From an uncultured bacterium (GTDB lineage Bacteria > Chlamydiota > Chlamydiia > Chlamydiales > SM23-39), in the NCBI GenBank assembly GCA_963716985.1, contig OY970323.1:160001-224000 (forward strand): a stretch of 64,000 nucleotides of DNA, read 5' to 3'. Both the position numbers and the translations under genes were made by a program. Shown here in pieces: positions 6,396 through 51,457 of the stretch; position 1 is the first letter of the stretch; every line of letters begins with the position of its first letter. Under the pieces are notes generated by a model. That model made no database searches and had not been told where the DNA came from. It worked only from the letters and a program-made list of their open reading frames with translations.

Positions 6396-6409
6396 TTAGA
6401 AATTTGTAT

Positions 6410-7738
6410 ATGCAAAAAATATTTGTATTAGACAAAAACAGAAAACCACTCATGCCCTGCTCGGCACAGAGAGCAAGGATGCTTTTGTCTTCAGGAAAAG
6501 CCGCTGTTTTAAAACGCTATCCTTTTACCATTATTCTTAAGGATAGAGAGTGTGGCGATGTACAAGATCTTGAGGTTAAAATTGATCCCGGAAGCAAAAC
6601 TTCCGGAATTGTTCTTGTTGGAAATTTTCTAAAAGGGAGAAAAGTTCTATGGGCAGCAAACCTTCAACATAGGGGAAATGCAATCTCATTATCACTTACC
6701 TCTAGAAGAGCATTGAGACGAAGCCGCCGTCATAGAAAAACACCCTATCGCGCCCCTCGATTTGATAATCGAAAACGAACAGATGGTTGGATTGCGCCTT
6801 CTTTGCAATCGAGAGTGGATCATATTCACACTTGGGTCTCCAGATTGCAGAGATGCTCTCCCATATCTTCCATCGCTGTAGAGACTGTACGTTTTGATAC
6901 GCAAAAATTGCAAAATCCGGAGATCTCCGGCATTCTCTATCAACAGGGAGAGTGCCTCGGCTACGAGATCAGGGAGTATCTTCTTGAAAAATGGGGGCGG
7001 AAATGCGCTTATTGCGGAAAAGAAAACACGCGATTAGAAATCGACCATATTGTTCCCAAAAGCCACGGCGGAAGCGATAGAGTCTCAAATCTCATCATCT
7101 CCTGCAAAGAATGCAATAGCAAAAAAGCAAACGGGGACATACAGGAGTTTTTAGAAAACAAGCCCGCTATTCTATCCAAAATTCTCACAAAGTCAAAAGT
7201 TTCACTAAGCGATGCTGCCGTAGTCAATGCGACGAGGGTAGCAATAGGCCGCGATCTTCGTTCCTTTAACCTTCCCCTCACATTTTGGAGCGGCGGTAGG
7301 ACAAAATTCAATAGAGTCAAACAATCGTACGAAAAAGACCACTGGATAGATGCTGCTTGTGTTGGAGAAACAGGAGAGTTCGTTCACATTGACAAAACAT
7401 TCTCCCCGCAAGTGATCAGGGAAACGGGAAAAGGCTGCCGCCAATTCTGCCTAATGGACCGATATGGATTTCCAAGGACGAGCGCCAAAAAGCAGAAAAG
7501 TGTCTATGGCTTCAAAACGGGAGACCTTGCCAGAGCCATTGTAACGAAAGGCAAAAAATCAGGGTGTTATCTTGGAAGGGTAGCCGTGAGGCTTTCGGGA
7601 AATTTTTGTTTTGACACCGCCGTCGGAAAAGTTGATGGCATTAACTATAGATACTGCCAAAATATACAGATGGCAGATGGTTACATTTATTCAATCAAGA
7701 AACCAAACAAAAGGAGCAGCGCTTCCTCCCACCCCTAA
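6410..7738 (+). CDS. iscB: RNA-guided endonuclease IscB (PLMP, split RuvC, HNH), 442 aa
   Basis: VLDKNRKPLMPC; RuvC-I IDPGSKTSG; Arg-rich bridge helix RRALRRSRR; RuvC-II VETVRFD; HNH CAYC..EIDHIVPKSHGG..SNL..CKECN; RuvC-III HWIDA. Confidence 0.95.
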   Translation: MQKIFVLDKNRKPLMPCSAQRARMLLSSGKAAVLKRYPFTIILKDRECGDVQDLEVKIDPGSKTSGIVLVGNFLKGRKVLWAANLQHRGNAISLSLTSRRALRRSRRHRKTPYRAPRFDNRKRTDGWIAPSLQSRVDHIHTWVSRLQRCSPISSIAVETVRFDTQKLQNPEISGILYQQGECLGYEIREYLLEKWGRKCAYCGKENTRLEIDHIVPKSHGGSDRVSNLIISCKECNSKKANGDIQEFLENKPAILSKILTKSKVSLSDAAVVNATRVAIGRDLRSFNLPLTFWSGGRTKFNRVKQSYEKDHWIDAACVGETGEFVHIDKTFSPQVIRETGKGCRQFCLMDRYGFPRTSAKKQKSVYGFKTGDLARAIVTKGKKSGCYLGRVAVRLSGNFCFDTAVGKVDGINYRYCQNIQMADGYIYSIKKPNKRSSASSHP

Positions 7739-7768: not shown

Positions 7769-9997
7769 ATGAAAAAGCTACTTTTTGCTCTAGTTTTCTT
7801 GGCCGCAGCTCTTTTTGCAAGTGAAGAGAACAATGCCCTTTTCGAAGAAAAAGCAGGCGTTTTGAATCAAGAATTGATGCAGCTTCGCTTTGAGCTGAAA
7901 GGGCATTATCAAAAAGCTGCACAACTTTTTGACAAGCACGCGGAAGAAAAGGAATATAAAGCTCTTCTTGAAACAATCAAAGAGACCAGGTCCAAGATCG
8001 AGGAAAAAGAAAAGTTGTGGCGCTCTTCTTTTATCGGAGGCAAGGAGAATAATGAGGAGGAGCCTTATGGCTTTTGGGATCAGGGAGAGACGACTCTTTC
8101 TCAGCTGATCATGGAATATGGGTCCTGCGATTTTCTCTACATTATCCCCTTGGAGATAGGTTCGATCAAAATTCATATGTGCTCGAATATTCCGATCCCT
8201 AAAGAGAGCTGGAATGAGATGATCGAGCTGATTCTTCTCCACAATGGAATCGGAATAAAAAAATTGGGCTCTTACTTGCGCCAGGTTTTTATTCTCAAAC
8301 ATGATCTGATGAATATTGAAGCGGTGGCCAAGTCGTTGGATGATTTGAAGCATCTCTCCGGCCTCTCTTCTGTTTTTTATGTCTTTTCCGCACCGTTGGA
8401 ACAGCTGCGCTCCGTGCAGGCTTTTTTTGAACGCTTTGCAGATCCCAAACAAACGACGATTCAGGTAGTAGGAAGCAAAATCGTTCTCATTGCCACGAAA
8501 GAATCCATTGAAAAATTATTGGAAATTTATAGCGTCATTTGGGGCAAAGAACAGGAAAAGATTGTGCGGATTTTTCCTTTAAAAAAGATCCAGGGAGCAG
8601 AGGCGGAAAAAATTTTGAAAACCTTTTTCCAAGAATCTGCAAGCAAAAACCGCCCTTCGTTTTACAATGCCCAGATCGAGGAGCTTACCATCATCTCTCT
8701 TCCTCCCGGCTCATCGCTTGTCTTGGTGGGCACGTTCGCTCTGGTAGAAAAAGCAGAAAAAATTTTGAAGGAGCTGGAGGAGGGGTTGCAAGAAAGCAGC
8801 GAGATGACCATTTTTTGGTATGCATGCAAACATTCGGCGCCTGAAGATTTGGCCCATATTTTGGAAGGGCTTTATTCCTCCATGAGCAAGAGCCCGTTTG
8901 CGGATGAAGAAAGGCCGTCTTCGGCCGAGGTTGGAGCGAATGCTCCCGATCTTCCCGTCTCCACTTCCTTCGTTCAACCGACAAAAATGGAGCAGCGCAA
9001 GGGTTTAGTAAAAGGAAATATCGTGGTCGACTCGAAGACGGGCTCTCTTTTTATGGCGGTGCGGAAAGAAGAATTGCCGAAAATACAGATGCTCTTGGAA
9101 AAGCTGGATGTCCCCAAAAAGATGGTGCAGATCGATGTGATGCTCATCGAAAAAAAACTTCTGGACCATAGCCAAACGGGCATTAATCTGCTCAAAATTG
9201 GATCCTCGCACAACGTAAAAGAAACCGCTCTTTCTTTTGACGGCTCTTCCAAAGCGAGCAAAAAGGGGATTTTAGATTTCATTCTCTCGCGCCCCAAGGG
9301 AACTCTTCCCTCGTTTGATCTTTTGGCAAGTTTTTTGATGGCGCAAGAAGATTTGCGCATCAATGCAAACCCCTCTGTTTTGGCCGTAAATCAAACCCCT
9401 GCCACGATTTCTATCGTAGAGGAAATCTCGATCAACAACGGCGCAATTCCCGTGGAGGCAGGGCAAAATAATTCCTATAAAAATTCTTATACGCGCGCCC
9501 AATATGGAATCCAGATTTCTCTTTTACCGATTATCCATCTATCCGAAGAAGAGGGAGAAAGGGGATTCATCACGATTCAGACCAAAGTGTCGTTTGACAC
9601 AACTCATGCATCTGAAGAGGATCGCCCGCCCGTGACGCGGCGTCAAATTGAAAATGAAGTTTGCGTCTCCGACGGGGAGACGATTATCCTTGGAGGGTTG
9701 AAAAGAAATTCGATCGAGGAGAATCGAGAAAAAATTCCATTTTTAGGAGACATTCCCGGCATCGGAAAGCTTTTTGGAACGAATAAAAGAAACAATAGCA
9801 CGACGGAAATGTTCATCTTCATCACGCCTCACATCGTGGGGGATACCAAAGAGGAGCAAAAAAAACTCAGGCAAGAGTCGCTGCAAAAAAGACCGGGAGA
9901 TCTTCCCGAGTTTCTCGAAAAACTCTACGAGGCAAAGGATTTGCAAAAGAAAAAGCTTTTTGAAAAAAGCTTAAGGCTCCTATGGGATCGAACCTAA
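7769..9997 (+). CDS. gspD: Type II secretion secretin GspD
   Basis: Signal peptide; LDVPKKMVQIDV; GETIILGGL; KIPFLGDIPGIGKLF; EMFIFITPHI. Confidence 0.93.
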   Translation: MKKLLFALVFLAAALFASEENNALFEEKAGVLNQELMQLRFELKGHYQKAAQLFDKHAEEKEYKALLETIKETRSKIEEKEKLWRSSFIGGKENNEEEPYGFWDQGETTLSQLIMEYGSCDFLYIIPLEIGSIKIHMCSNIPIPKESWNEMIELILLHNGIGIKKLGSYLRQVFILKHDLMNIEAVAKSLDDLKHLSGLSSVFYVFSAPLEQLRSVQAFFERFADPKQTTIQVVGSKIVLIATKESIEKLLEIYSVIWGKEQEKIVRIFPLKKIQGAEAEKILKTFFQESASKNRPSFYNAQIEELTIISLPPGSSLVLVGTFALVEKAEKILKELEEGLQESSEMTIFWYACKHSAPEDLAHILEGLYSSMSKSPFADEERPSSAEVGANAPDLPVSTSFVQPTKMEQRKGLVKGNIVVDSKTGSLFMAVRKEELPKIQMLLEKLDVPKKMVQIDVMLIEKKLLDHSQTGINLLKIGSSHNVKETALSFDGSSKASKKGILDFILSRPKGTLPSFDLLASFLMAQEDLRINANPSVLAVNQTPATISIVEEISINNGAIPVEAGQNNSYKNSYTRAQYGIQISLLPIIHLSEEEGERGFITIQTKVSFDTTHASEEDRPPVTRRQIENEVCVSDGETIILGGLKRNSIEENREKIPFLGDIPGIGKLFGTNKRNNSTTEMFIFITPHIVGDTKEEQKKLRQESLQKRPGDLPEFLEKLYEAKDLQKKKLFEKSLRLLWDRT

Positions 9998-11547
9998 AAA
10001 CCAGAGAATCTATCGGCGCATTTTTCGGAATGGACGCTGCGAAGGATCTCTTTGACTTTCCCTTCGTAAAAGAGCGCGTTTTCAAGATCGAGTATGCCTT
10101 TGCAAAAGAATACCAAGTGCTGCCTTTGCAAGAGGATGAAAAGAAGATCTGGGTTGCTGTTGTGGATCCTTTTCATTTGGAGCCGCTCGATGAACTTCGC
10201 CTCCTTTTAAAAAAGGAGATCAAGCCCGTTCTTACTTCCAAGAGCTCTTTAGAACAGGCCCTACAGCAGTGTTATCATCAAAATGAGGAAGAGACGAAAC
10301 GACTCTTGTCCCCCTTGGTGAAAAACAGGGAGGAAAAAACGGATGGAAGCGAGGGGTATGATCTTTTGGAAAAAAAAGAGGAAGGCTCCGTCATTCGCAT
10401 GCTCAACGCGATTCTCATTGAGGCTATTCAGGAAGGAGCGTCCGATATCCATTTTGAGCCCCAAGCAGAAGGGATGCACGTGCGCTATCGCATCGATGGA
10501 ATGCTTCTAAAAAGACATGAATTTCCGAAAGAGCATCAGTCTCAAATTCTGACGCGCATCAAAGTTTTATCTCAGCTCGATATTGCAGAACATCGCCTGC
10601 CTCAAGATGGAAGGGTCAAGTTGAAGATGGGGGGAAGAGAGATCGATTTTCGCGTGAGCACCATTCCCGTCATTTACGGAGAGCGGGCCGTGCTGCGTAT
10701 CCACGACCGCAGCCAAGCTCTTTTTGGCCTTGAGCATCTTGGCATGGGGGAAAAAATCTTAAACTCCTTTCGGAGACAGATTCGCTTTTCTGAAGGGATT
10801 GTCCTTGTCACAGGTCCGACCGGAAGCGGAAAAACAACGACGCTTTACAGCGCTCTTCACGAGATCCATTCTTCAGAAAAAAACATCATGACGATCGAAG
10901 ATCCCGTAGAGTTTAAAATCCCTCGCATCGCACAGATCGGAGTTAACCCTAAGATTTCGCTCACCTTTGGAATGGGACTTCGCCATATTTTGCGGCAAGA
11001 TCCCGATGTGATCATGATTGGAGAAATTCGCGATCGAGAAACTGCAGAAATCGCCATCCAGGCGGCTTTGACGGGCCATCTGGTTTTGAGCACTCTGCAT
11101 ACCAACGACGCTCCCTCGGCAATCGTGCGTCTGGTCGACATGGGAATCGAGCCCTATCTTCTCACCTCCTCCATCGTGGCTGTTTTGGCGCAAAGATTAG
11201 TTCGAAAAATTTGTCCCTCTTGCCGCACGAAATACACACCGACGGCCGAGGAATTAAAAAAATTGGGAATAAAAAAAGAAAACGCAAGAGAGATGCAGTT
11301 TTTTTACGGCAAGGGGTGCGAGGAGTGTTTTCAAACCGGATTTAAGGGAAGGCATGGAATTTATGAGCTCATGGAGATGAGCGCCTCTATGAAGAAGCAG
11401 GTCCTCAAAGGGCCCCAAGCAGAAGAGATCAAAGCCATCGCGCTTTCTGAAGAGATGGTCGATCTTTTTCACTCGGGTGTTGCGCTTGTTTGCCTTGGGA
11501 TAACCACATTGAGCGAAGTGCTTCGCGTTACGCAGATGCAAAGATGA
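9982..11547 (+). CDS. gspE: Type II secretion ATPase GspE (start may be ATG 10030)
   Basis: ASDIHFEP, RLPQDGR, Walker A GPTGSGKT, LRQDPDVIMIGEIRD, tetra-Cys motif. Confidence 0.95.
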   Translation: MGSNLKTRESIGAFFGMDAAKDLFDFPFVKERVFKIEYAFAKEYQVLPLQEDEKKIWVAVVDPFHLEPLDELRLLLKKEIKPVLTSKSSLEQALQQCYHQNEEETKRLLSPLVKNREEKTDGSEGYDLLEKKEEGSVIRMLNAILIEAIQEGASDIHFEPQAEGMHVRYRIDGMLLKRHEFPKEHQSQILTRIKVLSQLDIAEHRLPQDGRVKLKMGGREIDFRVSTIPVIYGERAVLRIHDRSQALFGLEHLGMGEKILNSFRRQIRFSEGIVLVTGPTGSGKTTTLYSALHEIHSSEKNIMTIEDPVEFKIPRIAQIGVNPKISLTFGMGLRHILRQDPDVIMIGEIRDRETAEIAIQAALTGHLVLSTLHTNDAPSAIVRLVDMGIEPYLLTSSIVAVLAQRLVRKICPSCRTKYTPTAEELKKLGIKKENAREMQFFYGKGCEECFQTGFKGRHGIYELMEMSASMKKQVLKGPQAEEIKAIALSEEMVDLFHSGVALVCLGITTLSEVLRVTQMQR

Positions 11548-11553
11548 GGATCG

Positions 11554-12738
11554 ATGGCTCTTTTTTCTTATAAAACTATAAATGAAAACGGAAAAAAAAC
11601 AACAGGCATGCTCCATGCGGAAAGCATCGGACACGCCCGCTCTCTTTTATTGCAGCGGAAAATATTGGTGACATCCCTGCAGATTTTGCCGGAAAGAAAA
11701 AGAGAGCGGGTGTTGCAAAAAAAGGATCTGCTCTCTTTCACGCGGCAAACGGCAAAGCTCTTAAAAGCGGGACTGCCCCTTTATGAAACGATTCTTTCTT
11801 TAGAAGAAAAATATCGCACTTCCCATCTGCAATCCTTTCTTCTCGATCTTACCGAAAAGCTCAAGGCGGGCCGTTCTTTTTCCGAAGCTCTTGCAATGCA
11901 TCCGAAAAATTTTGATTTTCTCTATTGTGCGATGGTAGCCAATGCGGAAAAAACGGGCTCTCTGGAACAAACTCTTGAAGAGATTGCCAATCTCCTCGAG
12001 AGAGGGGAAAAGCTGAAAGGCCAGCTTGTTTCTACTCTTATCTACCCCTCTTTTCTCTTAGGCTTTAGTCTGATGGTGGTTTGCTCTCTGCTTTTTTACA
12101 TCATTCCCTCTCTTTTTGAATTATTCGAGGGCAGGGCCCTGCATCCGCTCACGCAATGCATCCTTTCTTGCAGCCATTTTGCGATTTCCCATAAATTAGC
12201 GATCCTATCGGTTTTTGTTGTATCTCTCGCTTCATTGAGCCTCTGCTTTTTTTCCCAAAAAATAAAAGAGAGATTCGGGCGCATTTTCTTGCGCCTGCCC
12301 TTTGTGAAAAGCCTGATGCTTAAAGTGGGTTTTGTTCGTTACTTTCGCTCATTATCCGCCCTGCTCCAAGGCGGCGTTCCTCTTTTAGATGCACTCAAGC
12401 TTTCGCGAAGCGTGATGCTTCATTCTCTTTTAGACCGGCAGATGAAGGAAGCGGAAAGGCGCGTGAGAGAAGGGTGGCTTTTGAGCGTTCATTTGGAAAA
12501 AAGTTCTCTCGTTCCTCAGTGGGTCTGCCGGATGGTCGGTGTTGCTGAAAAGACGGGAGATTTGCAGAACATGCTGCGCCACATTGCCGACATTTATGAG
12601 GAGGAGCTGGAAAAAAGTCTTGCACAAATATCAACGTTTCTTCAGCCTCTTCTCCTACTCATATTAGGAGTGATCGTGGGAGTCGTTGTTTTATCCGTTC
12701 TCATTCCTTTAACTGACGTAAGTTCATTTTCAGGTTAA
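11554..12738 (+). CDS. gspF: Type II secretion inner-membrane platform protein GspF
   Basis: LLKAGLPL, two GspF domains with AEKTG motifs, three TM segments; operon context. Confidence 0.92.
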   Translation: MALFSYKTINENGKKTTGMLHAESIGHARSLLLQRKILVTSLQILPERKRERVLQKKDLLSFTRQTAKLLKAGLPLYETILSLEEKYRTSHLQSFLLDLTEKLKAGRSFSEALAMHPKNFDFLYCAMVANAEKTGSLEQTLEEIANLLERGEKLKGQLVSTLIYPSFLLGFSLMVVCSLLFYIIPSLFELFEGRALHPLTQCILSCSHFAISHKLAILSVFVVSLASLSLCFFSQKIKERFGRIFLRLPFVKSLMLKVGFVRYFRSLSALLQGGVPLLDALKLSRSVMLHSLLDRQMKEAERRVREGWLLSVHLEKSSLVPQWVCRMVGVAEKTGDLQNMLRHIADIYEEELEKSLAQISTFLQPLLLLILGVIVGVVVLSVLIPLTDVSSFSG

Positions 12739-32106: not shown

Positions 32107-33998
32107 TGGAAAAAAAGCTCGGTTCAAAGAGAGTCTTTAGCTTTTGCTTCCTTTTTTCTCTATGTTTGCATGGAGGTGTTCTTTTTTTCTTAGAAAATTT
32201 TTATTTTTTTCGCACAACGCCCCTTTCTCATGACAAGAGCTTTGCGGCCCGTGAAAAAATGGTCCTTCCTTCCAGACGGGAAGACTCTCCCATCCTACGG
32301 GTCTCTTTTCATCAAACATCTTCTCATGGGGGCGTCCAAGAAAGCATCTCTTGGGAAAACGGCTCCTCTCTTCGGAAAGAAAAAGAGGATTTCGGGTCCA
32401 TTCACGCGCCTTCTTTTCTTGGGAAAAAGAGAGAAGATCCATTTGTCCCCCTTCGATTTTCCACCAAACAAAAAAACATCAGCTCTCCCGTAAAAGAGAT
32501 CGGCGTCCCGCAAAAGAGGCAAGTCGAGATGGCCCCTTCTTTGAAAGAGAAAGTAAAGGCAAGGGAAGTAGCCCCGATCAAAGAAGAGGCTGCGGAAAAG
32601 AAAAGTTTTTCCAAACCGGAAGAGCCGCTTGCAAAGACAGAGCTGCCCTCTCCCCCCCTATCTATCTCGCAGACGGGGGACGCAGCTCCGCTCAAAGAAG
32701 AGGCGGCGGAAAAGAAAAACTCTTCCAAACCGGAAGAGTCTTTAGCAAAGACAAAAGTGGCATCCCCCGCCGCATCTGTCTCTGAGGAGCCGTCCCACTC
32801 TCATCCATCCGATAGTTCCTTGTCGGAGATTGCGCCCTTTCGCTGCAAAAGTGATCTTTTCGAGCCTAAAAAAGCCGCTTTTCCCAAGCCCGGCAAAAAA
32901 GGTACCCTCATCAATCGAAGATCTCCTTTAGTCTTCCACATGCCCACTTCTTCCGATCTTCATATTCTTTCCTGCGGCAATGATTTCGACCTGGATGTGG
33001 TCTATAATCTCCGAGAGGATGGAGAGGGATATCTTTTTGCTCTCTCCTTAATTCCGAAAAAAAACATTTCCTTTCAAAGAATCAAGCAGAACTATCTTTT
33101 CCTTTTAGATCGCTCCCATTCGATTGGAGAAGAGAGGTTTTATTCTACCAAAGCAGCTCTTTTCTCGGCCCTCTCTCTTCTCGACAGAGAGGATACCTTT
33201 AATATCATTGCCTTCGACAAGAAAAACGAGGCGCTTTTTGAAAAAAACATGCCTGCCAATGCAGCGATGATCCGTCATGCAAAGGAATTTTTACAAAAAC
33301 AAAAGATTGCCGGAATTTTTACTACGACAAATATTTCCCGCCCTCTTTTTCTGGGATCGCAGCAATTGATGAAGGAGGCGGGAAGCCGTTCGATCATCTA
33401 TTTTTCAAACGGAGAAACGCTCGATAAAGCGGGCCATAAAAAGGCGCTTCATGATTGGACCCAAAATAATAAGGGAGCGATTTCTTTTTATAGCGTGATT
33501 CAGAAGGGGGATAAAAAGGGACGTCTTCTCGAGTATCTTTCCGCACTCAATAAGGGAAAACTTTTCGCATCTCAAACGCCGAGCGGCTTCAGGCGCACTC
33601 TTCGGAAGCTCATCTCTTCCATACGCACGCCTTTGGCGCAAAACATGGAAGCCTATGTCTATCTGATGAAAGGAGGGACCGAGGTGACCCTCTATCCCTC
33701 TTTGAAACAGATGCCCAACCTTTATTTAGACCAGCCCTTCGTGGTGATCGGGACGACGAAAAAGCTGGAACCCTTTACCCTCTTTCTCCAAGGGAAGAAT
33801 AAGGGCCAATGGTTTCATATCAAAAAGGACATTTCCTTTCAGAATGCACGATCTTCCGGCCCCTTCCTTTATGAAGAATGGGCGCTTCAAAGGGCCTATC
33901 GCTGTTATGACGCCTATCTTCAAGACGGAAATGAAGACCATTTAAAAAAAGCAAAAGAATTATTAACTCCTTTTTGCGTGGAAGAAGCATTTCGATGA
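32103..33998 (+). CDS. Membrane-anchored vWA (VIT-like) domain protein
   Basis: N-terminal TM (SLCLH), low-complexity linker, MIDAS-like FLLDRSHSI, FNIIAF. Confidence 0.75.
   Translation: MMEKKLGSKRVFSFCFLFSLCLHGGVLFFLENFYFFRTTPLSHDKSFAAREKMVLPSRREDSPILRVSFHQTSSHGGVQESISWENGSSLRKEKEDFGSIHAPSFLGKKREDPFVPLRFSTKQKNISSPVKEIGVPQKRQVEMAPSLKEKVKAREVAPIKEEAAEKKSFSKPEEPLAKTELPSPPLSISQTGDAAPLKEEAAEKKNSSKPEESLAKTKVASPAASVSEEPSHSHPSDSSLSEIAPFRCKSDLFEPKKAAFPKPGKKGTLINRRSPLVFHMPTSSDLHILSCGNDFDLDVVYNLREDGEGYLFALSLIPKKNISFQRIKQNYLFLLDRSHSIGEERFYSTKAALFSALSLLDREDTFNIIAFDKKNEALFEKNMPANAAMIRHAKEFLQKQKIAGIFTTTNISRPLFLGSQQLMKEAGSRSIIYFSNGETLDKAGHKKALHDWTQNNKGAISFYSVIQKGDKKGRLLEYLSALNKGKLFASQTPSGFRRTLRKLISSIRTPLAQNMEAYVYLMKGGTEVTLYPSLKQMPNLYLDQPFVVIGTTKKLEPFTLFLQGKNKGQWFHIKKDISFQNARSSGPFLYEEWALQRAYRCYDAYLQDGNEDHLKKAKELLTPFCVEEAFR
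32574..32765 (+). repeat. In-frame 114-bp-period duplication within the vWA protein linker
   Basis: PIKEEAAEKKSFSKPEEPLAKT versus PLKEEAAEKKNSSKPEESLAKT. Confidence 0.8.
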
Positions 33999-34570
33999 GC
34001 TTGCGCATTGTGGGCGGTTTTTTAAAAGGAAGGAAGATAGAAGTTCCCAAAACGTTTTCCTTTCGCCCCTCCTCTGAGATGCTTCGAGCGGCCCTTTTTA
34101 ACATCTGTCAATTTCACATTGAAAACGTCCATGTTCTTGATCTTTTTTCCGGATCCGGGGCTTTGGGTATCGAAGCGATGAGCCGAGGAGCCGCTTTCTG
34201 TCTTTTTGTAGAAAAAGATCGAAAAACCGCTAGCTTGATTCAAAAGAATTTGGAAGCGCTGTGTATCAGCGATCGGGCGCAAGTGGTTTGCGGCGATGTC
34301 CCGACTTTCGTTAAAACCATTCGAGGGGTATTTCAACTAGTAACACTCGACCCTCCCTATGACTTTTCCAAAGAACATCCCGAGCTGATTGCAACAACCG
34401 TAAGCCAACTGGCTGCGAGCGAGAGTCTTACTCAACATGCGCTTCTTTTTTTTGAAGAGGGCTTTTCTAAAGAGCATTTAGAAAACCCGCCCGCCTTTCC
34501 CTCTTTTGCCCATCAATCCACCAGAAGATATGGCGGCTCGCTTTTGCACCACTACCTTTTCAAGAAGTGA
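33995..34570 (+). CDS. rsmD: 16S rRNA m2G966 methyltransferase
   Basis: LRIVGG.LKGR, RPSSE, LDLFSGSGALGIEAMSRGA, DPPY. Confidence 0.93.
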   Translation: MSLRIVGGFLKGRKIEVPKTFSFRPSSEMLRAALFNICQFHIENVHVLDLFSGSGALGIEAMSRGAAFCLFVEKDRKTASLIQKNLEALCISDRAQVVCGDVPTFVKTIRGVFQLVTLDPPYDFSKEHPELIATTVSQLAASESLTQHALLFFEEGFSKEHLENPPAFPSFAHQSTRRYGGSLLHHYLFKK

Positions 34571-34665: not shown

Positions 34666-35178
34666 ATGTGGTTCGTCTCCCTCGCAGCTGTTTTTCCCGA
34701 AATTGCAGCTTCTGAAACCCGCGTCCTTCATGCATTTGCGAGCCCCGCAGTACCAAATGGAGCCTATGCTTTTTCGGAGTGTTATTGCACTGATCCGGAA
34801 TGTGATTGTCAGTTGGTACGTTTTGTGGTGATAGACACTCATGGGCAGGAGCATGCCTCTATCTCTTATGGATGGAATAACAAGGCTTTTTACGATGAAG
34901 CCTTTTCTGGCTGCGATCACAATTTTCCGGGACCTGATTTTACTATCTTGCAGCGGCAAGGCACTTATGCCAAGTATTTTCTTGATTTTTGTAAAAATGT
35001 TTTGATACGAGATGAGGCTTATGTTGAACGTTTGAAAAGGCATAATGCTTTATTTAAGCAGGAGGCGAGGAAGAGAGACTTGTCAAAACCTATACCGATT
35101 CAAAAATCTCCGACCATTGGAAGGAATGATCTCTGTTCGTGCGGGAGCGGGAAAAAATACAAGAAATGCTGCTACTGA
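34666..35178 (+). CDS. SEC-C motif protein
   Basis: YCTDPECDC motif and C-terminal [19 protein letters not shown]. Confidence 0.85.
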
Positions 35179-35734: not shown

Positions 35735-35764
35735 TTGACTTGTTGAACTACCAGCAAGTATAAC
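35735..35764 (+). promoter_or_regulatory. Putative sigma66/70 promoter for the repeat-protein/barrel operon
   Basis: TTGACT-N18-TATAAC, followed by an AAGGAGG RBS at 35785. Confidence 0.4.
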
Positions 35765-35801
35765 CTCTTTGCAAAATAAGGCTGAAGGAGGAAAATTCGC
35801 A

Positions 35802-37172
35802 ATGAAACGAAGCGTTTTTCGAAGGTTAATTTCATGCGCCATAGCAATATGGGCGATTTCCAATGTTGGTTATTCAATTGGCGTCACTTGGAATCCGATC
35901 ACTACTCCTGGAGGCTTTCCTCCGGTGAACGATGAGGATGTTCATTGTTGTTTTGATAGCAACAACAACCAAATATTCGCCACCTGGGGGGATCTCTCAG
36001 CTACGTTCCAATCAGCCTATTATGACGGCACCACCTGGAATCTGATCACAACACCACTCAGCTTCCCATTGGTACAGGCAAGTGTTCATTGTTGTTTTGA
36101 TAGCAACAACAACCAAATATTCGCCACTTGGGGGGATTCCTCAAGTAAGTTCCAATCAGCCTATTATGACGGCACCACCTGGAATCTGATCACAACACCA
36201 CTTAGCTTCCCATTGGTACAGACAAGTGTTAATTGCTGTTTTGATAGCAACAACAACCAAATATTCGCCACCTGGGGGGATCTCTCAGCTACGTTCCAAT
36301 CAGCCTATTATGACGGCACCACCTGGAATCCGATCACTACTCCTGGAGGCTTTCCATTGGTCAATTTCGATGTTCATTGCTGTTTTGATAGCAACAACAA
36401 CCAAATATTCGCCACTTGGGCGGATTCCTCACGTAAGTTCCAATCAGCCTATTATGACGGCACCACCTGGAATCCGATCACTACTCCTGGAGGCTTTCCA
36501 TTGGTCATTTTCGATGTTCATTGCTGTTTTGATAGCAACAACAACCAAATATTCGCCACCTGGGGGGATCTCTCAGGTACGTTCCAATCAGTCTATTATG
36601 ACGGCACCACCTGGAATCCGATCACTACTCCTGGAGGCTTTCCTCTGGTTACTAGCGATGTTGATTGCTGTTTTGACAACAATAGCAACCAAATATTCGC
36701 CACCTGGGGGGATCTCTCAGCTACGTTCCAATCAGCCTATTATGACGGCACCACCTGGAATCCGATCACTACTCCTGGAGGCTTCCCAGGAGTCATTCTC
36801 AATGTTGATTGCTGTTTTGACAACAATAGCAACCAAATATTTGCCACTTGGACGGCGGCTCTCTCTCTCTTCCAATCGGCCTATGCGATTATTCCCTTTA
36901 CTCCTTCTTTCACCATGTCAGGTACTCAAAAAAACAACAACTTTGCCGTTGTAAGCGAGAAATTTAACACTCTTTCCTGGAAAAACCTTTCACCCCAGCA
37001 AACTGCAAAGTATCTTTTGAAACGCAACGGAGCATTAATCGCCACTTTAGGAAGTGACGTTACTTCCTATCAGGATCATAACCGCACATCAGCAGATACC
37101 TACATTTTGACCGCCATTGATGCTCATGGAAATTCCATTTCTACAGCCACAATTACAATTGGAGGAAAATAA
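35802..37172 (+). CDS. Secreted seven-repeat protein (probable 7-bladed beta-propeller, lectin-like) with FN3-like C-terminal domain
   Basis: Signal peptide; seven copies of WNPITTPGGFPxVxxxVxCCFDSNNNQIFATWxxxxxxFQSAYYDGTT; unique C-terminal domain of about 95 aa. Confidence 0.8.
   Translation: MKRSVFRRLISCAIAIWAISNVGYSIGVTWNPITTPGGFPPVNDEDVHCCFDSNNNQIFATWGDLSATFQSAYYDGTTWNLITTPLSFPLVQASVHCCFDSNNNQIFATWGDSSSKFQSAYYDGTTWNLITTPLSFPLVQTSVNCCFDSNNNQIFATWGDLSATFQSAYYDGTTWNPITTPGGFPLVNFDVHCCFDSNNNQIFATWADSSRKFQSAYYDGTTWNPITTPGGFPLVIFDVHCCFDSNNNQIFATWGDLSGTFQSVYYDGTTWNPITTPGGFPLVTSDVDCCFDNNSNQIFATWGDLSATFQSAYYDGTTWNPITTPGGFPGVILNVDCCFDNNSNQIFATWTAALSLFQSAYAIIPFTPSFTMSGTQKNNNFAVVSEKFNTLSWKNLSPQQTAKYLLKRNGALIATLGSDVTSYQDHNRTSADTYILTAIDAHGNSISTATITIGGK
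35889..36884 (+). repeat. Seven tandem coding repeats of 144 bp (first unit 147 bp)
   Basis: Unit starts (TGG) at 35889, 36036, 36180, 36324, 36468, 36612, 36756. Confidence 0.95.
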
Positions 37173-37174
37173 CC

Positions 37175-37957
37175 ATGAATGCGAGATATTTTGCGATGAT
37201 TTTAGCATTTTTTCCCTGGCTGGTTGTAGCAAGCGATGGGATGTCAACTTTCGACCAAAAAAAACCCGATCCCCTTATGAATAATCCAGCATGTTTAAGC
37301 CCCCCTCTGCCCAATGAAAACAGGGATGGATTACAAAGGGATCTTCTTGAGCATAGAAACGGGACACGTCACCAAAAGTTAACACCCCAAGCAACTTCTG
37401 ACGTTGAAGTAAAAGCAGGTTATTTTTTCTTTACCTCTTCGGATATGCGTCATGTTTTTGACAAAGGGGGCTTCGATCTGCAGATATCAGGAAATTATGG
37501 CTTTTATCATTGGCTGCGACTCTACAGCAGCGTAGAATATCTGCAAAAATCGGGATATTCGCTCAATGATCACCAGCGCACATCGATTTGGGAAGTCCCC
37601 TTAAGCCTCGGTTTACAGGCATTTGTTATGTTTCACAAGGCGGACTCCTCTCAAAAAAAAACATCCAGAAACACTTTCGATATTTATTCCCTTTACTTCA
37701 CATTGGGGCCAAGATATTTCTTTGCTCACGTCCATAACAATTCCGACTATGTGGATCGTCGGATGAGCCAACATGGGCTGGGCGGCTTTGCAAATGCAGG
37801 AGTGCAGTTCTTGTTCAATCGGCATTTTATCATTGATGCCTTTGGGGAATATTCCTATTGCAGGTTGCATTTTCATAGCTCGCATTACGCCGCGCAAGGA
37901 TATGAGGTTCAGGTCGGCGGGCTGACCTTTGGCGGCAGTTTGGGCTATAAATTTTAA
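37175..37957 (+). CDS. Outer-membrane beta-barrel protein (small, about 8 strands)
   Basis: Signal peptide; alternating strands (EVKAGYF, WEVPLSLGL, YFTLGPRY, IDAFGEYSY); C-terminal GGSLGYKF BAM-type signal; starts 2 nt after the repeat gene stop. Confidence 0.8.
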   Translation: MNARYFAMILAFFPWLVVASDGMSTFDQKKPDPLMNNPACLSPPLPNENRDGLQRDLLEHRNGTRHQKLTPQATSDVEVKAGYFFFTSSDMRHVFDKGGFDLQISGNYGFYHWLRLYSSVEYLQKSGYSLNDHQRTSIWEVPLSLGLQAFVMFHKADSSQKKTSRNTFDIYSLYFTLGPRYFFAHVHNNSDYVDRRMSQHGLGGFANAGVQFLFNRHFIIDAFGEYSYCRLHFHSSHYAAQGYEVQVGGLTFGGSLGYKF

Positions 37958-38183: not shown

Positions 38184-38879
38184 TTAAGAAGAAAGAAGGC
38201 GCGTGCTTTTTCTATGAGGAGATGCGCAAAGCTCTTGGATATCGACGAGCTGTTTTTCTTCCACCTCAAAATAAGAATGAAGATTGTTTCGTATGCGGAG
38301 GAGAAAATCCTCTTTCGAGCAAAAATGATTCTTCAAAGAGAGCAAAAATTCTTTGTGGGCTCGATCCTGCCGATAGGCGGGCGCTTTTTTAGGATGGGCC
38401 AAAAGACCCATCTCTTGGGGATCGAAGTCCCAAAGAAATGAAGTGTGATGAAGCCATCGATCTTTTTGTAGGTATTGAGCGTTGCCGCCGCATTTGAGAT
38501 TTCCGATCACGTAATCATTTTCTTTACAATCAAAAGAAGGAAGGCGAAGCGCTTTTTTATAAAAGTCTGCCATCCATCGATGGATTTCTTCTGTTGTGTC
38601 AAAGGGCAAATCCTTTTTGGAAATGATGAAGGAGACAAAGATCGTATGTTCATCTACAAGAACGCTCCCCCCTCCGCTAAATCGTTTGATGACGGGAAGA
38701 TGAGTGGGGAAAAAAGAGAGCTCTTCTTCTGCTTTTTTAGAAACGCCAAGGACCAGTGCTTTGGGAGATCCTATGTTGAGAAAACACCAGCTGCGGTTGT
38801 CCAGGCGAAGGAGTGCTTCTTCATATTGCAGCTGGGAATAGATGAAGAGGTTTTTTGTGGAGAGAAGGTGCAAGCGCAT
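38184..38879 (-). CDS. lplA: Lipoate-protein ligase A family protein
   Basis: QLQYEEALLR, KRFSGGGSV, KCGGNAQ, WLHHTSFLWD. Confidence 0.85.
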   Translation of the reverse strand: MRLHLLSTKNLFIYSQLQYEEALLRLDNRSWCFLNIGSPKALVLGVSKKAEEELSFFPTHLPVIKRFSGGGSVLVDEHTIFVSFIISKKDLPFDTTEEIHRWMADFYKKALRLPSFDCKENDYVIGNLKCGGNAQYLQKDRWLHHTSFLWDFDPQEMGLLAHPKKAPAYRQDRAHKEFLLSLKNHFCSKEDFLLRIRNNLHSYFEVEEKQLVDIQELCASPHRKSTRLLSS

Positions 38880-42350: not shown

Positions 42351-43348
42351 AAAAAGATTTTGAATGTTTTTGAGCGTCAACCGTCGTCGAGCGAAACCAA
42401 TCTTTTTTGAAAACAAAGCTTTTCCCTGACGATATGGGTTTCTCGACTCTCCCGAACTTAAAAGAACTACACCCCCTCGAACCAAGTTCCTTTTTGAGCC
42501 TTTTTCCTAAGAAGAATTTAGAAGATCTTTTAATCGAACATTCCTTTCTTTCATCATCCAGGAAAACATATCCGCCCATGATTCAACATAAAATTCTGAA
42601 AACAGGGTCCGTAATCTGTCCCAAAACCGATTCTTTCTCCGCATCTTTTTTAGCGCTGCCTGGAATAACCCACAGCATCTTTGCTGTACCTGGTCTATGA
42701 GAAACGCTAAAAACATAAGCAGTCCAAATACATGGCTTAGGTTTTTATAGCCATGCCCGAAAGTATGCTCAAATTGGTAGCCTTGGTTCTTGAGGGTGTT
42801 GAATGTCTCATTCTCAATTTTCCACCGTGCTCTACCGCCTTTTGCGAGTTGGTCCACGTTGTCTTGGGTTACAAGAATGTCCGTTACCCAGGAAAACCGC
42901 CCCGTTATTTCGCCTTTTTTATTTCTTATAATGCAGTCAACAAAATTGACTTGCAGATCGTGATGAGAGTCGTTCAAAGGAACTGCGTTAAGAAAACTAA
43001 GCTCTATGGTCTCTTTTTTCGTTTTTATCGTTTTTGTCTCTAGCTTGATACCTTTTATCCATTCGAACAAGCTCGGATTTCCGGTTGGATTTACATTGAC
43101 GATAAAATGTGCGCCAATCTTCTTTATCTCTTTGAGATAAGGTCCCTTTGCGCTCAAAGCATCTTCTGTAAAAATCACCTCAAGATGAGGGTGTTCTCTT
43201 TGAAAATCAGACAAAAGCCTTTTCATGGCATTTTGTTCACAGTCATTCTTAGTGGATCCGTCTGATTTAGAAATTGGCTCTGGACAAATGGGAAAAACTT
43301 CTCGTTGATCTGGGTGAACAATGGCAGCTCCAAGCATTTGATGATAAT

Positions 43349-43538
43349 CCTAAAAACGGCAGTTGAACCGCTCTGCATGACCTGAAAATTGTAAATTTCT
43401 CTCTCAGAAATAAATTCTATCTTGAACTTTCACGCCCACCCAATAGGTGAGTGGATAAATTTGAGCAATAACATTGATTTTTAGAGGAGAATCGCGAAAG
43501 TTTTGATTGTGCGGAGCGGTTCAACTGCCGTTTTTAGG
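43349..43538. mobile_element. 190-bp MITE with 29-bp TIRs and 5-bp TSD
   Basis: TIR CCTAAAAACGGCAGTTGAACCGCTC(T/C)GCA; TSD ATAAT at 43344-43348 and 43539-43543. Confidence 0.92.
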
Positions 43539-43846
43539 ATAATAGGTAATTCGTCCATCTTTATGATGTTTTTCACAGCAATTTTCACAATGAATGGAGT
43601 CTGATGAAAACATACCTGTTCCATCACAGGCGCAAAGAAGATATTTTCCCAAAAATTTGTAATCTTCCAAAATTTTTCCTCTCTGAATAAGAGAGAAAAC
43701 AGATGTAAATGCAGGCCTAATGTTTATGGAATCGACTTGATCAAGTCGCTCTCTCATGTAAGTGTCAGAAGGAACCTTTTGAACAAGGTAGAGAGTTTTA
43801 AGATTATGCTTGAGGGTTTTGGTCTCACATGCCTCATCGAATTGCA

Positions 43847-43970
43847 GGCCATGTTCACTTCTTCGGTCAGTTGTTAATGCGACTGCCTTTGTTTTTTAAT
43901 GATGAGGGCGACTTTGCTGACTTGTGCCATCCACTGACCGAAAGTTTTTCCTCTCAAAGTGAACAAGGCC
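43847..43970. mobile_element. 124-bp MITE with 14-bp TIRs and 8-bp TSD (IS1595-like ends)
   Basis: TIR GGCC(A/T)TGTTCACTT; TSD GAATTGCA at 43839-43846 and 43971-43978. Confidence 0.9.
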
Positions 43971-44282
43971 GAATTGCAGAAGAGATGGAAATTTTAAGCC
44001 AAAGATAGCCAAAGCAGCCATAAGACAATCAGTCGTTGAAATTTCCGATTTTAATCCTCTTGGATCCTTGATCGTCTCAGGGATTTTCTCAAACGTTGCG
44101 TGGATTTTTCCCAGCATTCCTTTGGCGGAAAGCTGCTTTTTTTCGGTAAAATGAATGCCCATAGCTCTTTTCTCTGGTTTGCGAAAAAATTTTTCACGGG
44201 AATTGCTGGAACCATTGTGTTTTAGAAAGACGATCGATCTCTATATGGAGAAGGCTTTGAAGTGGAAAAAGAGGATGTCTTT

Positions 44283-45262: not shown

Positions 45263-47158
45263 CTAGTCTGTTGGAGAGAAAGCTGCAAAAGCTTCTTCGT
45301 TTGCTTTGAGATTGGCCGGCGTGAAATTCGCAAACTGGGCAAGCTCTTTTCGAAAGGTCAAATAGACCGATCCCACGCCTCCGTGGCGGTTTTTGGCAAC
45401 GATGAGCTCTGCTTGTCCCGGCTTATCATAGGGATCGTAATACTCTCTTCGCAAAAGGAACATCACAATATCAGAGTCTTGTTCAATGCTATTGTGGATG
45501 ATGATGTCATTGGCGATGAAATTATGGACGCCATCCACAGTCGCATCATAGACATCTTCGATCTTTAATTTGGTAATAGAGAGTATGTCATCCCAGTAAA
45601 CGTTAGATTCGGTGAGATCTAATAGATCATCGTCATGGGAAGATAGCGGCTTTGGACGGCCAATCATATCGCCGGATTTTAATTGATCGAGTCGTGTCCA
45701 ACCGTCAGATTGTAAAAATGGATGATTGGCGCTGGCTTTGATAGAGAGCCCCCCTCTAGTTTTTAATTCGAAAACCTCTTTTTTCCCGGAATAAAAGGCT
45801 TTGATCAGCTTGTGTTTTCCAATTTTTAGATTTTTGTCGATGGCGTAAACGGTGATAGGGGTTTGTTGTTTTCTTTCCGCAAGCTCTTTGATGGAATACA
45901 TTTTTCCCGTCTCGGCATCTTTAATTTTTGTCTCGCCGGTGACGCAACCCGATTCGCGAAGATCGCTCATCATGGGACGATGGCCTTGGCGCTCTTCCAC
46001 TTTTCGGGAAAGCTGCGAAAGACAGAGAACGGGAATGTTCAATTCGCGTGCAAGATTTTTGAGCAGACGGGAAATCTCGGAAATCTCATTTTGACGATTT
46101 TCAATCGAGCGCATCGTTCCGGATCCGGAGAGAAGCTGTAAATAGTCGATGACGAGAAATTGAATATCATACGCTTCTTTCATGCGTCGCGCCCGAGCTC
46201 TCAAATCGGTGATCTTGATGCCGGGCTGATCGTCGATGATCATCGAATGTTTTTGCATTTCATTGACGCTGGCGACGATGCGTTGATAATCGCTTCCGTT
46301 CAGAGCGCCTGTTTTGATCTTTTCCGATTCGACCTCCGACTGCGAACAGATGATGCGATGAAGAAGCTCTTCTGCGCTCATTTCCAAGGAAAAGATGCCC
46401 ACGGGCTGGCGGTCGCGGAAACAAACGTTTTCTGCGATATTGAGAGCGAGCGCAGATTTTCCCATCGCAGGCCTTGAAGCTAAAATGATGAGGTTGGAAT
46501 GATTGAGTCCGTTGATGAGCTTGTCGAGATCGGCAAAATGGGTGGGAATTCCCGTCACGTAAGATTTGTTGGGCCCTTTGATCTGATACTCTTCTTGACG
46601 CGCTTGGAGTTCTTTGAGGTAGGGTAGTTTGGTCTCCGATTTAGCACCTGAGAGAAGATCTTTGATAGGAATGGATTGATCGGTGCTTGTGGCCTGAGAG
46701 ATCTGAAAAAATTTGGCCTGCGCTTCATCGAGAAGCTCCGAAACATCCTGGGGTCCTGCCAGCGACTCTTTTTCGATTTCTTGCGCCGTGAAAATCATCT
46801 GGCGCAAAACAGCCTTGTCTTTGACGAGCTTGACATACTCGTCGATGTAGGCAGATGTTCCTGCATATTGAGCAAGCGTTGTGAGATAAGCAATGCCGCC
46901 CGCTTCTTCGAGCTTTCCATCTCTTTTGAGAAATTCTGCAATGATGTGAATGTCGGCCGGCTGATCCTTATGATAGGCTTCTTTCAGAGAGGAAAAGATC
47001 GTTTTGTGTTCTTTAAAGAAAAAGTCGGAATCTTCCAGGCCATCCGCTGCGATATTGAGACTATTGATGCTCGTCAGCATGCAGCCCAAGACCATCATCT
47101 CTGATTCTTTGGAATTGGGAGCGCTTTTTACTTTTAGAGTTTTTTCTTTTGCGGTCAT
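45263..47158 (-). CDS. dnaB: Replicative DNA helicase DnaB containing an intein
   Basis: ASRPAMGKS, IDYLQL, LSQLSR, SDLRESG...SIEQDSD, AKNRHG. Confidence 0.97.
   Translation of the reverse strand: MTAKEKTLKVKSAPNSKESEMMVLGCMLTSINSLNIAADGLEDSDFFFKEHKTIFSSLKEAYHKDQPADIHIIAEFLKRDGKLEEAGGIAYLTTLAQYAGTSAYIDEYVKLVKDKAVLRQMIFTAQEIEKESLAGPQDVSELLDEAQAKFFQISQATSTDQSIPIKDLLSGAKSETKLPYLKELQARQEEYQIKGPNKSYVTGIPTHFADLDKLINGLNHSNLIILASRPAMGKSALALNIAENVCFRDRQPVGIFSLEMSAEELLHRIICSQSEVESEKIKTGALNGSDYQRIVASVNEMQKHSMIIDDQPGIKITDLRARARRMKEAYDIQFLVIDYLQLLSGSGTMRSIENRQNEISEISRLLKNLARELNIPVLCLSQLSRKVEERQGHRPMMSDLRESGCVTGETKIKDAETGKMYSIKELAERKQQTPITVYAIDKNLKIGKHKLIKAFYSGKKEVFELKTRGGLSIKASANHPFLQSDGWTRLDQLKSGDMIGRPKPLSSHDDDLLDLTESNVYWDDILSITKLKIEDVYDATVDGVHNFIANDIIIHNSIEQDSDIVMFLLRREYYDPYDKPGQAELIVAKNRHGGVGSVYLTFRKELAQFANFTPANLKANEEAFAAFSPTD
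45491..45946 (-). mobile_element. 152-aa mini-intein (no homing endonuclease) in DnaB
   Basis: RESG/CVTGET...ASANHPF...VYDATVDGVHNFIANDIIIHN/SIEQD: Cys1, block B His, terminal His-Asn, Ser+1. Confidence 0.95.
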
Positions 47159-49935: not shown

Positions 49936-51457
49936 CTCGACTTTGTACATTTTTTGATCTGATAGCCCAAAGTCATTTGCTTCAATCTGTAAAATAAAAA
50001 GTTGATAGAGAGTGCCGCTTCGCGCATACTATTTGGTTCAGTAAAACAAAATGGCAGGCTCTCATGGACTCTCTATCGTCAAACATTTTAGCAGTACTCA
50101 CCCCTTTTTCAGTACTTTTTTCAAATCCTTCTTGGAAAAAAGCCCTGACCTTATTACTTGGCACGCTTTTATGCACTGGCAAGAGAACCGTGTGTGCGGC
50201 TCTGCGCGCAATGGGTCTTGAGCATCAGTCGGGTTTTTCAAAGTACCATCACCTTTTAAACCGGGCGGAATGGTCGTCACTCAAGGCAGCGAAAATCCTA
50301 TTCTTTATGTTGCTTATCTTTGTCTCCGATCAGCATCCTTTGGTTCTGCTCATTGACGAGACATTGGAGCGCAGGCGTGGCAAGAAGATAAAAGCAAAGG
50401 GCTATTATCGAGATGCGGTTCGATCGTCACAGTCTCGAGTGGTCAAAGCCATGGGTTTGAAGTGGCAGGTTATGGCGCTCTCTGTGAAATTGCCGTTTAT
50501 GTCGAGAGCACTTGCATTGCCTTTTTTGAGTGCACTGGAGCCTTCTAAAAAATGTGATGAAGCGAAGAAACGTCGGCACAAAACCTCATTAAAATGGGCG
50601 AGTCAGATGGTCTTACAGGTGCGTCGATGGGTAGGTAAGGCGCGATCACTAATTCTTGTTGGCGATGGAGGATATGCTGCGGGACAGTTGGCTCTGAACT
50701 GTATCTGTTCTGGGGTGACTCTTGTTTCGCGACTGAAAATGAATGCAGCCCTGTTCGATTTCCCGGCCAAAAAACGTCCCGGTCAAAGGGGACGTACTGC
50801 ACAGAAAGGCGTCAAATTGAAAAATTTTAAACAGATGCTATCTCTGAAGGGATTGCCCTGGAAAGAAATGGAAGTAGTCGGTTACGGCGGAGAGAAACGG
50901 GTAGCTCGCGTGCTGTCTAACACATGTATGTGGGGAGCCGATGGAGCAACTCCTATACCCATCCGATGGGTTTTGGTGGTAGATCCTACAGGAAAACTCG
51001 ACCCTCTACCTCTTATGAGCACAGATCCACGCATGACGCCAGAACGTATGATAGAGTTATTTATCGATCGCTGGGGACTTGAGGTCACATTCGAAGAAAC
51101 ACGTGAACATCTTGGCGTAGAGACTCAGCGGCAATGGTCGGATCGAGCGATAGCCCGATCGACCCCCATACTGATGGGGTTATATAGTTGCGTATGCCTA
51201 ATGGCAAATCGATTGGGACAGGTAAATTTGCTTAAGGTAGAGGCAACTGCTTGGCACCAAAAAGAGCACGTCACATTTTCCGATATGTTGAGGGCCGTGC
51301 GCATGGTAATATGGAGGGATAATTTAATTTCCGGGAAGGCTAAAATCACCCCTTCCGTGGAAAATATTACTCCAGAAATGGTGGATTGGATGGATGATAT
51401 AGTAAGACGAGTGCTTCAGGCGGCCTGAACTAAGCCGCTAAAAGTTGCAAAGTCGAG
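49936..51457 (+). mobile_element. IS701-like insertion sequence, intact, 1522 bp
   Basis: TIR CTCGACTTTG; 5-bp TSD ATTAC at 49931-49935 and 51458-51462. Confidence 0.9.
50064..51428 (+). CDS. IS701-like DDE transposase (454 aa)
   Basis: LIDETLERR, VGDGGYA, RWGLEVTFEETREHLG, TFSDML. Confidence 0.9.
   Translation: MDSLSSNILAVLTPFSVLFSNPSWKKALTLLLGTLLCTGKRTVCAALRAMGLEHQSGFSKYHHLLNRAEWSSLKAAKILFFMLLIFVSDQHPLVLLIDETLERRRGKKIKAKGYYRDAVRSSQSRVVKAMGLKWQVMALSVKLPFMSRALALPFLSALEPSKKCDEAKKRRHKTSLKWASQMVLQVRRWVGKARSLILVGDGGYAAGQLALNCICSGVTLVSRLKMNAALFDFPAKKRPGQRGRTAQKGVKLKNFKQMLSLKGLPWKEMEVVGYGGEKRVARVLSNTCMWGADGATPIPIRWVLVVDPTGKLDPLPLMSTDPRMTPERMIELFIDRWGLEVTFEETREHLGVETQRQWSDRAIARSTPILMGLYSCVCLMANRLGQVNLLKVEATAWHQKEHVTFSDMLRAVRMVIWRDNLISGKAKITPSVENITPEMVDWMDDIVRRVLQAA

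Follow-up and report, generated by a model that had tools for sequence, protein, structure and literature searches.

A terminal fibronectin-like tail and a small outer-membrane barrel: a widespread, apparently undescribed gene pair of environmental chlamydiae

How could an environmental chlamydia display a protein on its surface when neither that protein nor the barrel encoded behind it matches an autotransporter or two-partner family? The question is raised by two adjacent genes in a 64,000-nt stretch (hereafter the window) of the chlamydial contig OY970323.1, from a genome (G000) that is a single 2.07-Mb contig: gene 1 encodes a secreted protein composed of a passenger and a C-terminal tail domain, and gene 2 a small outer-membrane β-barrel. 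Little is known about the surface proteins of environmental chlamydiae, and most adhesins described from chlamydiae are autotransporters. We find that tail and barrel make up a real and widespread system of environmental chlamydiae, and one that is apparently undescribed. From sequence comparisons we propose that the tail probably docks, through an extended hairpin, in the extracellular mouth of the barrel, such that the passenger would be held non-covalently on the cell surface and the barrel would act as an anchor, not as an export pore. No description of the pair was found in the literature searched, including the accessible text of PMC2811131 and PMC3991601 (subscription papers and supplements lay outside the scope).

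A passenger-tail protein and a small barrel encoded side by side

Gene 1 (P0001; 35802..37172, from the ATG at 35802 to the TAA at 37172; both genes of the pair and the features within them lie on the plus strand) encodes 456 aa, comprising a predicted Sec signal peptide read by eye (residues 1 to ~25, 35802..35876), seven 48-aa repeats of four strands each that are predicted to form a 7-bladed β-propeller (residues 30–365, 35889..36896), and the tail (P0003; residues 364–456, 36891..37169). A preliminary description of this DNA, made from the sequence alone, had recognized a signal peptide, seven repeats and a distinct C-terminal domain of ~95 aa with the motifs SGTQKNNNF..EKFNTLSW..YLLKRNG..YQDHNR..YILTA. 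This layout holds, with a hydrophobic N-terminus, near-identical repeats of 48 aa and a domain of 93 aa, as does the ribosome-binding site it gave to the gene (GGAGG, 10 nt upstream of the ATG). The promoter-like motif it also saw, a pair of hexamers (TTGACT-18-TATAAC, 35735..35764, plus strand), is visible in the sequence and indistinguishable from chance, with a scan of the region returning 3 sites against 5.2 expected and this motif not among them. Gene 2 (P0002; 37175..37957), identified as an open reading frame (ORF) with a Pfam match to OMP_b-brl that falls below the curated cut-off (E 2.6e-5), encodes a 260-aa protein and was correctly described as a small barrel ending in GYKF; its ATG at 37175 lies 2 nt past the gene 1 stop and its GGAGG within the final codons of gene 1, and the two genes are likely translationally coupled. 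Pfam gave nothing diagnostic on gene 1, NCBIfam held no family for the window tail or barrel, and POTRA and autotransporter families matched neither protein in either database, in keeping with the earlier view that neither type Vb nor type Va secretion fits.

The barrel domain proper (residues 76–260, 37400..37954), delimited by profile and alignment, is OmpW/OMP_b-brl-like with a C-terminal Phe. Alignment to the closest solved structures (OprG at E 0.005 and OmpW at E 0.05 for a profile of 174 positions), together with the C-terminal Phe, suggests eight strands, with loops L1 (~87–98), L2 (~127–136), L3 (~186–196) and L4 extracellular. Among 70 barrel members, OMP_b-brl was matched in 33 and OmpW in 8 at E ≤ 0.01, with weak matches to the autotransporter family PF03797 in 3 (best E 5e-4). 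OmpW/OprG and OMP_b-brl barrels are the closest small barrels known, but the family described here differs from them in its family-specific conserved outer loops and its fixed linkage to tail genes: the family-conserved residues sit on L1–L3, and variation is greatest in the periplasmic turns, which tolerate insertions. An atlas search with the barrel returned generic OMP_b-brl clusters only, the plasmids and viral contigs searched held no relative, and the Bacteroides TraO family PF10626 had no match in G000 (the control matched in B. thetaiotaomicron). When barrel proteins of greater length were sought, 2 matches emerged, both with low-complexity N-terminal repeats; this search is insensitive since it missed a known 574-aa fusion. 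An ompW gene is mentioned for Neochlamydia S13 in the accessible text of PMC3991601.

The tail, a probable sorting module, has an extended hairpin

The tail has a fibronectin type III (FN3) fold, as judged from an AlphaFold2 model built on a 62-sequence alignment (predicted local distance difference test, pLDDT, 91.6), from structure searches (Z up to 11.3 against FN3 structures, rmsd 2.2, 79 aligned) and from hidden Markov model comparison, in which the sequence similarity to FN3 spans profile positions ~24–90; the seven-stranded sandwich and the conserved Trp and Tyr residues of FN3 domains are present. What is peculiar to the tail is its long A-B hairpin, formed by extended first and second strands (tail residues 7–18 and 21–32) and ending in a conserved N-x-F tip, together with its single-copy, terminal position. 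Generic FN3 domains lack this hairpin: the 150 best-scoring proteins with such domains gave 2021 domain matches, of which 1972 begin past profile position 18. The tip, N379–V383 (36936..36950), is the predicted barrel-binding element by conservation and covariation; across 95 tails, position 381 is Phe in 84% and position 379 Asn in 73%. When 62 tails were compared with Pfam, only FN3-like families were matched and no C-terminal domain (CTD) family of type IX secretion systems (T9SS). A tail profile search of 1.84 billion representatives gave 48,439 matches at E ≤ 0.001, dominated by tandem FN3 proteins, and served as a control only.

The passengers in front of this domain are unrelated to one another. 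Passenger ORFs in paired loci range from 275 to 3197 aa, and of 39 scanned against Pfam (from 60 listed), 23 matched and 16 did not, with the matched families, which are characteristic of adhesins and other surface proteins, including YVTN and BNR propellers, CarboxypepD_reg arrays, 27 Big_3 repeats, Big_9/cadherin, DUF11, PKD, TIG and β-helix; some passengers are Gly-rich. In 180 of 182 distinct cases no more than 7 residues separate the end of the tail from the stop codon, and the tail was never doubled within one ORF (loci to L184). Among 122 complete tail ORFs, crude patterns detect a hydrophobic N-terminal stretch in 100 and a lipobox-like motif in 2. The tail acts as a sorting module would; the preliminary description had asked whether it caps diverse passengers, and the unrelated Pfam families that precede it show that it does. 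The longest passenger (3197 aa, L058:996-10586) has 27 Big_3 repeats and the tail, and the barrel gene behind it is frameshifted.

Tail and barrel genes are linked across the order

Genome searches were confined to the phylum of the window, and the patterns for the one scan of all genomes came from the close subfamily. Within the order, 179 of 400 genomes have the barrel, confirming the recurrence in Chlamydiae that the preliminary description had suggested; it was found in none of 25 genomes of family f33, which we infer to be Chlamydiaceae. In separate profile searches of 150 order genomes, 66 proved to have the tail and 59 the barrel, distributed as 52 with both, 7 with the barrel only, 14 with the tail only and 77 with neither, counts in which related genomes are not independent. 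Co-location of tail and barrel, the other point that the preliminary description had asked about, is strong: of 109 barrels, at least 60 have a tail no further than 5 kb away, where ~2 would be expected. At least 41 of the 109 follow a same-strand tail at a distance of up to 600 bp, and at least 19 more are within 5 kb. Loci chosen by their barrel held a tail in 40/51, 41/53 and 46/80 cases in overlapping samples, the last with narrow flanks.

G000 itself has 3 tails and 4 barrels. One further tail gene, which encodes a YVTN-type propeller, is divergent from a second barrel, and the third (2002486-2003796) has no adjacent barrel. Two orphan barrels without a nearby tail lie at C1:1355796-1356416 and 1521053-1521724, the former without its last strand in frame (profile positions 3–151 of 174) and possibly broken. 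Records titled Verrucomicrobiae or Acidobacteriota were considered as cases from other phyla and rejected: the neighbourhoods of L083, L084 and L086 are syntenic with G000 and the genomes checked measure 1.1–2.3 Mb, and these and similar records are probably mislabelled chlamydial genomes.

Covariation joins the hairpin tip to the predicted outer loops of the barrel

If tail and barrel recognize each other, the contact might be recorded in correlated substitutions. Mean-field direct coupling analysis of 163 distinct neighbouring tail-barrel pairs (Meff 149) returned F381-V193 (z 8.9) and V383-V186, F381-S129, V383-V94 and N379-S129 (z 6.0–6.2) as the five strongest inter-chain couplings, all of which join the hairpin tip to inferred extracellular loops of the barrel; the span with V94, S129, V186 and V193 on L1–L3 is 37454..37753. 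The tip-window statistic, the sum of the top five z, was 33.2, the highest of all windows, compared with 14–20 for the tip in 7 within-clade shuffles (best window anywhere 21–26), 14–18 in 6 full shuffles (best 22–25), and 22–29 in 4 random halves of the data. Four of the five top pairs remained in the top six under 4 other parameter sets. The 12 strongest tip couplings placed 9 on extracellular columns, which make up 63 of 172, and 0 on periplasmic turns. Position 193 is Leu in 11 of 17 pairs with a non-aromatic residue at 381 and in 9 of 146 otherwise, at several positions in the tree, a pattern that looks like size compensation. Overall, the sequence identities of tails and barrels correlate (Mantel rho 0.63, 78 pairs).

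A natural propeller-barrel fusion without a tail

The protein encoded at L094:1225-2994 (P0281) consists of a signal peptide, a propeller, ~25 residues and the barrel, without a tail, and its propeller is homologous to that of gene 1 (BLASTP E 2e-11). The junction is common to six proteins of the cluster (P0282-P0287), which form one lineage, and the fusion is therefore not a single assembly error. In its genome, G224, the fused barrel is the only barrel found, next to five tail proteins, one of them directly upstream, and no ORF with both tail and barrel was found. A fusion that does without the tail fits a tail that links passenger and barrel non-covalently.

Proposed mechanism and alternatives

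From these lines of evidence we posit the following sequence of events. Passenger and barrel, both of which carry Sec-type signal peptides as read from sequence, would enter the periplasm, and the β-barrel assembly machinery (BAM) would insert the barrel by way of its C-terminal Phe, as established for such proteins. The passenger would fold in the periplasm and cross the outer membrane by a separate machine, most plausibly a type II secretion system (T2SS), after which N379, F381 and V383 at the hairpin tip would bind loops L1–L3, a step supported by the covariation. Free exchange of passengers in front of the tail would then yield modular adhesin display, the predicted 7-bladed propeller being the passenger of the window. 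For the export step, gspD-gspE-gspF genes (7769..12738, plus strand, family matches), 23 kb from the locus, offer a candidate route; within the anchor model, the odds that this T2SS exports the passenger seem to us about even. An OmpW-like 8-stranded barrel is too narrow to pass a protein. The preliminary description had proposed that the tail is recognized by its partner barrel, in the manner of T9SS CTD-PorP pairs or of curli- or Slam-type export; the first comparison is supported by the linkage, the diverse passengers and the outer-face covariation, and the second is not, given the narrow barrel and the lipobox-like motif in only 2 of 122 passengers.

Several observations weigh against docking at the outer mouth of the barrel. 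A deeper profile still found no barrel in 3 of 5 retested tail-only genomes (G030, which is 99% complete and has 3 tails, G132 and G163), and no tail appeared in 4 of 5 retested barrel-only genomes (G170, G034, G049 and G083), while the fifth proved to have one, weak and directly upstream of the barrel. The real maximum z of 8.9 compares with shuffled maxima of 5.2–7.5, such that single couplings come near the ceiling and it is their clustering that carries the argument; of the 163 rows, 82 fell into a single one of the 25 shuffle clades, and phylogeny is therefore only partly controlled; a test on independent pairs was not significant and was underpowered (4 and 8 supported pairs). The barrel topology itself relies on the alignment to OprG/OmpW (E 0.005–0.06), and the T2SS is tied to the passengers by gene presence alone. 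Finally, the propeller of the fusion sits at the barrel N-terminus, which is normally periplasmic; the anchor model leaves this topology unexplained, and export and periplasmic alternatives are thereby kept alive.

The alternative that fares best is a split mini-autotransporter, in which the barrel, still folding on BamA, would take up the tail on the periplasmic side, and a BamA-barrel hybrid pore would let the passenger across. It would predict the same covariation signal, would make the tail-less fusion and its six-member cluster the one-chain form of the system, and accords with the usual position of the barrel directly behind its passenger and with the autotransporter-like character of some passengers (Gly-rich, or β-helix). 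We nevertheless regard it as unlikely, considering that the fusion linker measures only ~25 aa, that no ORF combines tail and barrel, that G224 sets one fused barrel against five tail proteins and that, to our knowledge, no autotransporter combines an 8-stranded barrel with a passenger at the N-terminus. The broad form of this idea, an export-and-display class in which an 8-stranded barrel would catch the FN3 hairpin and need no machine other than BAM to bring passengers of up to 3000 residues to the surface, making it a split non-covalent autotransporter with the fusion as its one-chain form, likewise seems improbable to us.

It is quite doubtful that recognition is absent altogether and that the pair is simply a co-regulated cassette of a porin or adhesin resembling OmpW and a common surface protein that happens to end in FN3. 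Co-transfer alone would be expected to produce the correlated identities of tail and barrel, and the one-part genomes and the non-significant independent-pairs test are in line with it, but it does not account for a tail that is kept, and kept terminal, while passengers change wholesale, for its absence from the fusion, or for covariation limited to the hairpin tip and the outer loops. A periplasmic complex, with the tail tethering proteins of propeller or Ig type to the outer membrane from within, is very improbable, for although the fusion propeller lies at the periplasmic, N-terminal end of the barrel and Cys-rich blades would suit the disulfide-linked chlamydial envelope, the covarying and conserved barrel residues are on L1–L3, variation in the barrel peaks in the periplasmic turns, and a 3197-aa passenger of 27 Ig repeats looks like an extracellular adhesin.

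Comparison with known systems

The closest parallel to surface anchoring by tail and barrel is the type B branch of the T9SS of Bacteroidota, as far as the accessible text of the sources cited here describes it. There, PorP/SprF proteins are 14-stranded FadL-family barrels that act with the 36-stranded SprA translocon (PMC9143113), the gene for the cognate barrel often lies directly downstream, the barrel binds the substrate, and orphan CTDs share a barrel (PMC9143113, PMC12618676). Both systems combine a signal peptide, a variable passenger and a conserved C-terminal β-sandwich; the uncleaved CTD has been proposed as the anchor by which a passenger is attached to its barrel, the role suggested here for the tail; the barrel gene follows directly, here for at least 41 of 109 barrels; and orphan tails that share one barrel mirror the orphan type B CTDs (PMC12618676). 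They differ in that the barrel here is OmpW-like with an inferred 8 strands, the tail is an FN3 domain with a long hairpin, and the phylum is another. No PorP_SprF family was present among the Pfam matches of 70 barrel members, and a search for SprA/Sov gave no match in G000 and none in the control genomes either. Since PorP is a 14-stranded FadL-family barrel and neither the CTD nor the PorP family was matched, the pair is not a member of the T9SS; by analogy, it may work like a type B CTD and PorP built from unrelated folds.

Other systems are more distant, and by the features compared the pair belongs to none of them. Type Va autotransporters join passenger and 12-stranded β-domain in one chain, in contrast to the two genes here, with no PF03797 on the window proteins, and type Vb systems pair a TpsB protein of POTRA domains and a 16-stranded barrel with an N-terminal TPS domain, neither of which was found in the window proteins, the 70 barrels or the scanned passengers. 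The type XI secretion system (T11SS) with its Slam barrel resembles the present pair in linking an outer-membrane barrel gene to a surface passenger gene, and the accessible text describes Slam as a translocon mainly for lipoproteins (PMC13721041), whereas lipobox-like passengers are rare here. The DUF560/SlipAM family was not among the matches of the 70 barrels, and in a genome-wide Slam search no control gave a match.

If surface anchoring by the pair is true, the logic of a CTD with its cognate barrel, known from the T9SS, would have arisen a second time from unrelated folds, and the tail profile would be a direct marker of the surface-displayed repertoire in these symbionts of protists and invertebrates. 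Passengers would also be possible substrates for the little-understood chlamydial T2SS. Small OmpW-like barrels would gain a role as protein anchors; we know of no such role for OmpW. The prediction extends to single residues, and two small proteins would suffice for an inexpensive test.

The propeller passenger of the window

The repeats of gene 1 likely fold as a seven-bladed propeller, to judge from a single-sequence model of medium confidence (pLDDT 59.6) in which the tail did not resolve. Its top Foldseek matches are the PLL/PHL seven-bladed lectins of Photorhabdus (E 4e-13, TM 0.48/0.62), which resemble the passenger in structure and differ in sequence, with ~7% identity; Kelch and GH74 propellers score nearly as high, and sugar binding by the propeller would at present be a weak lead. 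The near-identity of the seven blades (35889-36896) suggests a recent amplification from one blade. Each blade carries an adjacent Cys-Cys pair, giving 14 cysteines in all.

A mobile element within the barrel gene

Barrel residues ~22–72, upstream of the domain proper, are encoded by an insertion overlooked in the preliminary description, a 151-bp element resembling a miniature inverted-repeat transposable element (MITE) with terminal inverted repeats, in frame just after the signal peptide (37238..37388) and recognized by its repeat copies in G000. Three copies of 151–154 bp with 15–16-bp terminal inverted repeats are present in this genome, the others at C1:1188454-1188607 and 1287862-1288012. 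The identities of these two are 97% and 91%, and one of them is flanked by an exact 11-bp target duplication; one occupies the beginning of a gene that reads by eye as PIN/TRAM-like, and the other is intergenic. For none of the three copies was a parent transposase identified, and the element folds no better than shuffles (z −1.0). The barrel reading frame is kept because 151+11 bases were inserted, and the gene is probably still functional, given that the insertion lies ahead of strand 1 and behind the signal peptide, where the members of the barrel family vary freely.

Genomic setting and other features of the window

Upstream of the pair lie an rsmD-type methyltransferase gene (33974-34570) and a gene for a SEC-C protein (34666-35178), and beyond gene 2 an lplA-type gene (38184-38879, minus strand). 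The gap between rsmD and lplA is 3.6 kb in the window and ~1.0 kb in G001, the sole same-genus genome, where it contains no match to gene 1 or gene 2, which agrees with the earlier placement of the pair in an accessory stretch. In G009 a tail-barrel pair also adjoins lplA, in an orientation different from that of the window.

Elsewhere in the window, an RNA-guided endonuclease IscB (NF040563, above cut-off; 6380-7738) lies directly upstream of gspD-gspE-gspF, and a 631-aa DnaB helicase (45263-47158, minus strand) has its profile match split by a ~150-aa insert that appears mini-intein-like by eye. A transposase-like gene in pieces, also recognized by eye, occupies 42507-44162, its largest piece without an NCBIfam match, and an IS701-family transposase above cut-off lies at 50064-51428. 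G000 further encodes an NTP/NDP exchange transporter, in keeping with a chlamydial genome, and at C1:1349265-1352989 FeFe-hydrogenase-like and NuoF-like partner genes (by eye) suggest anaerobic metabolism.

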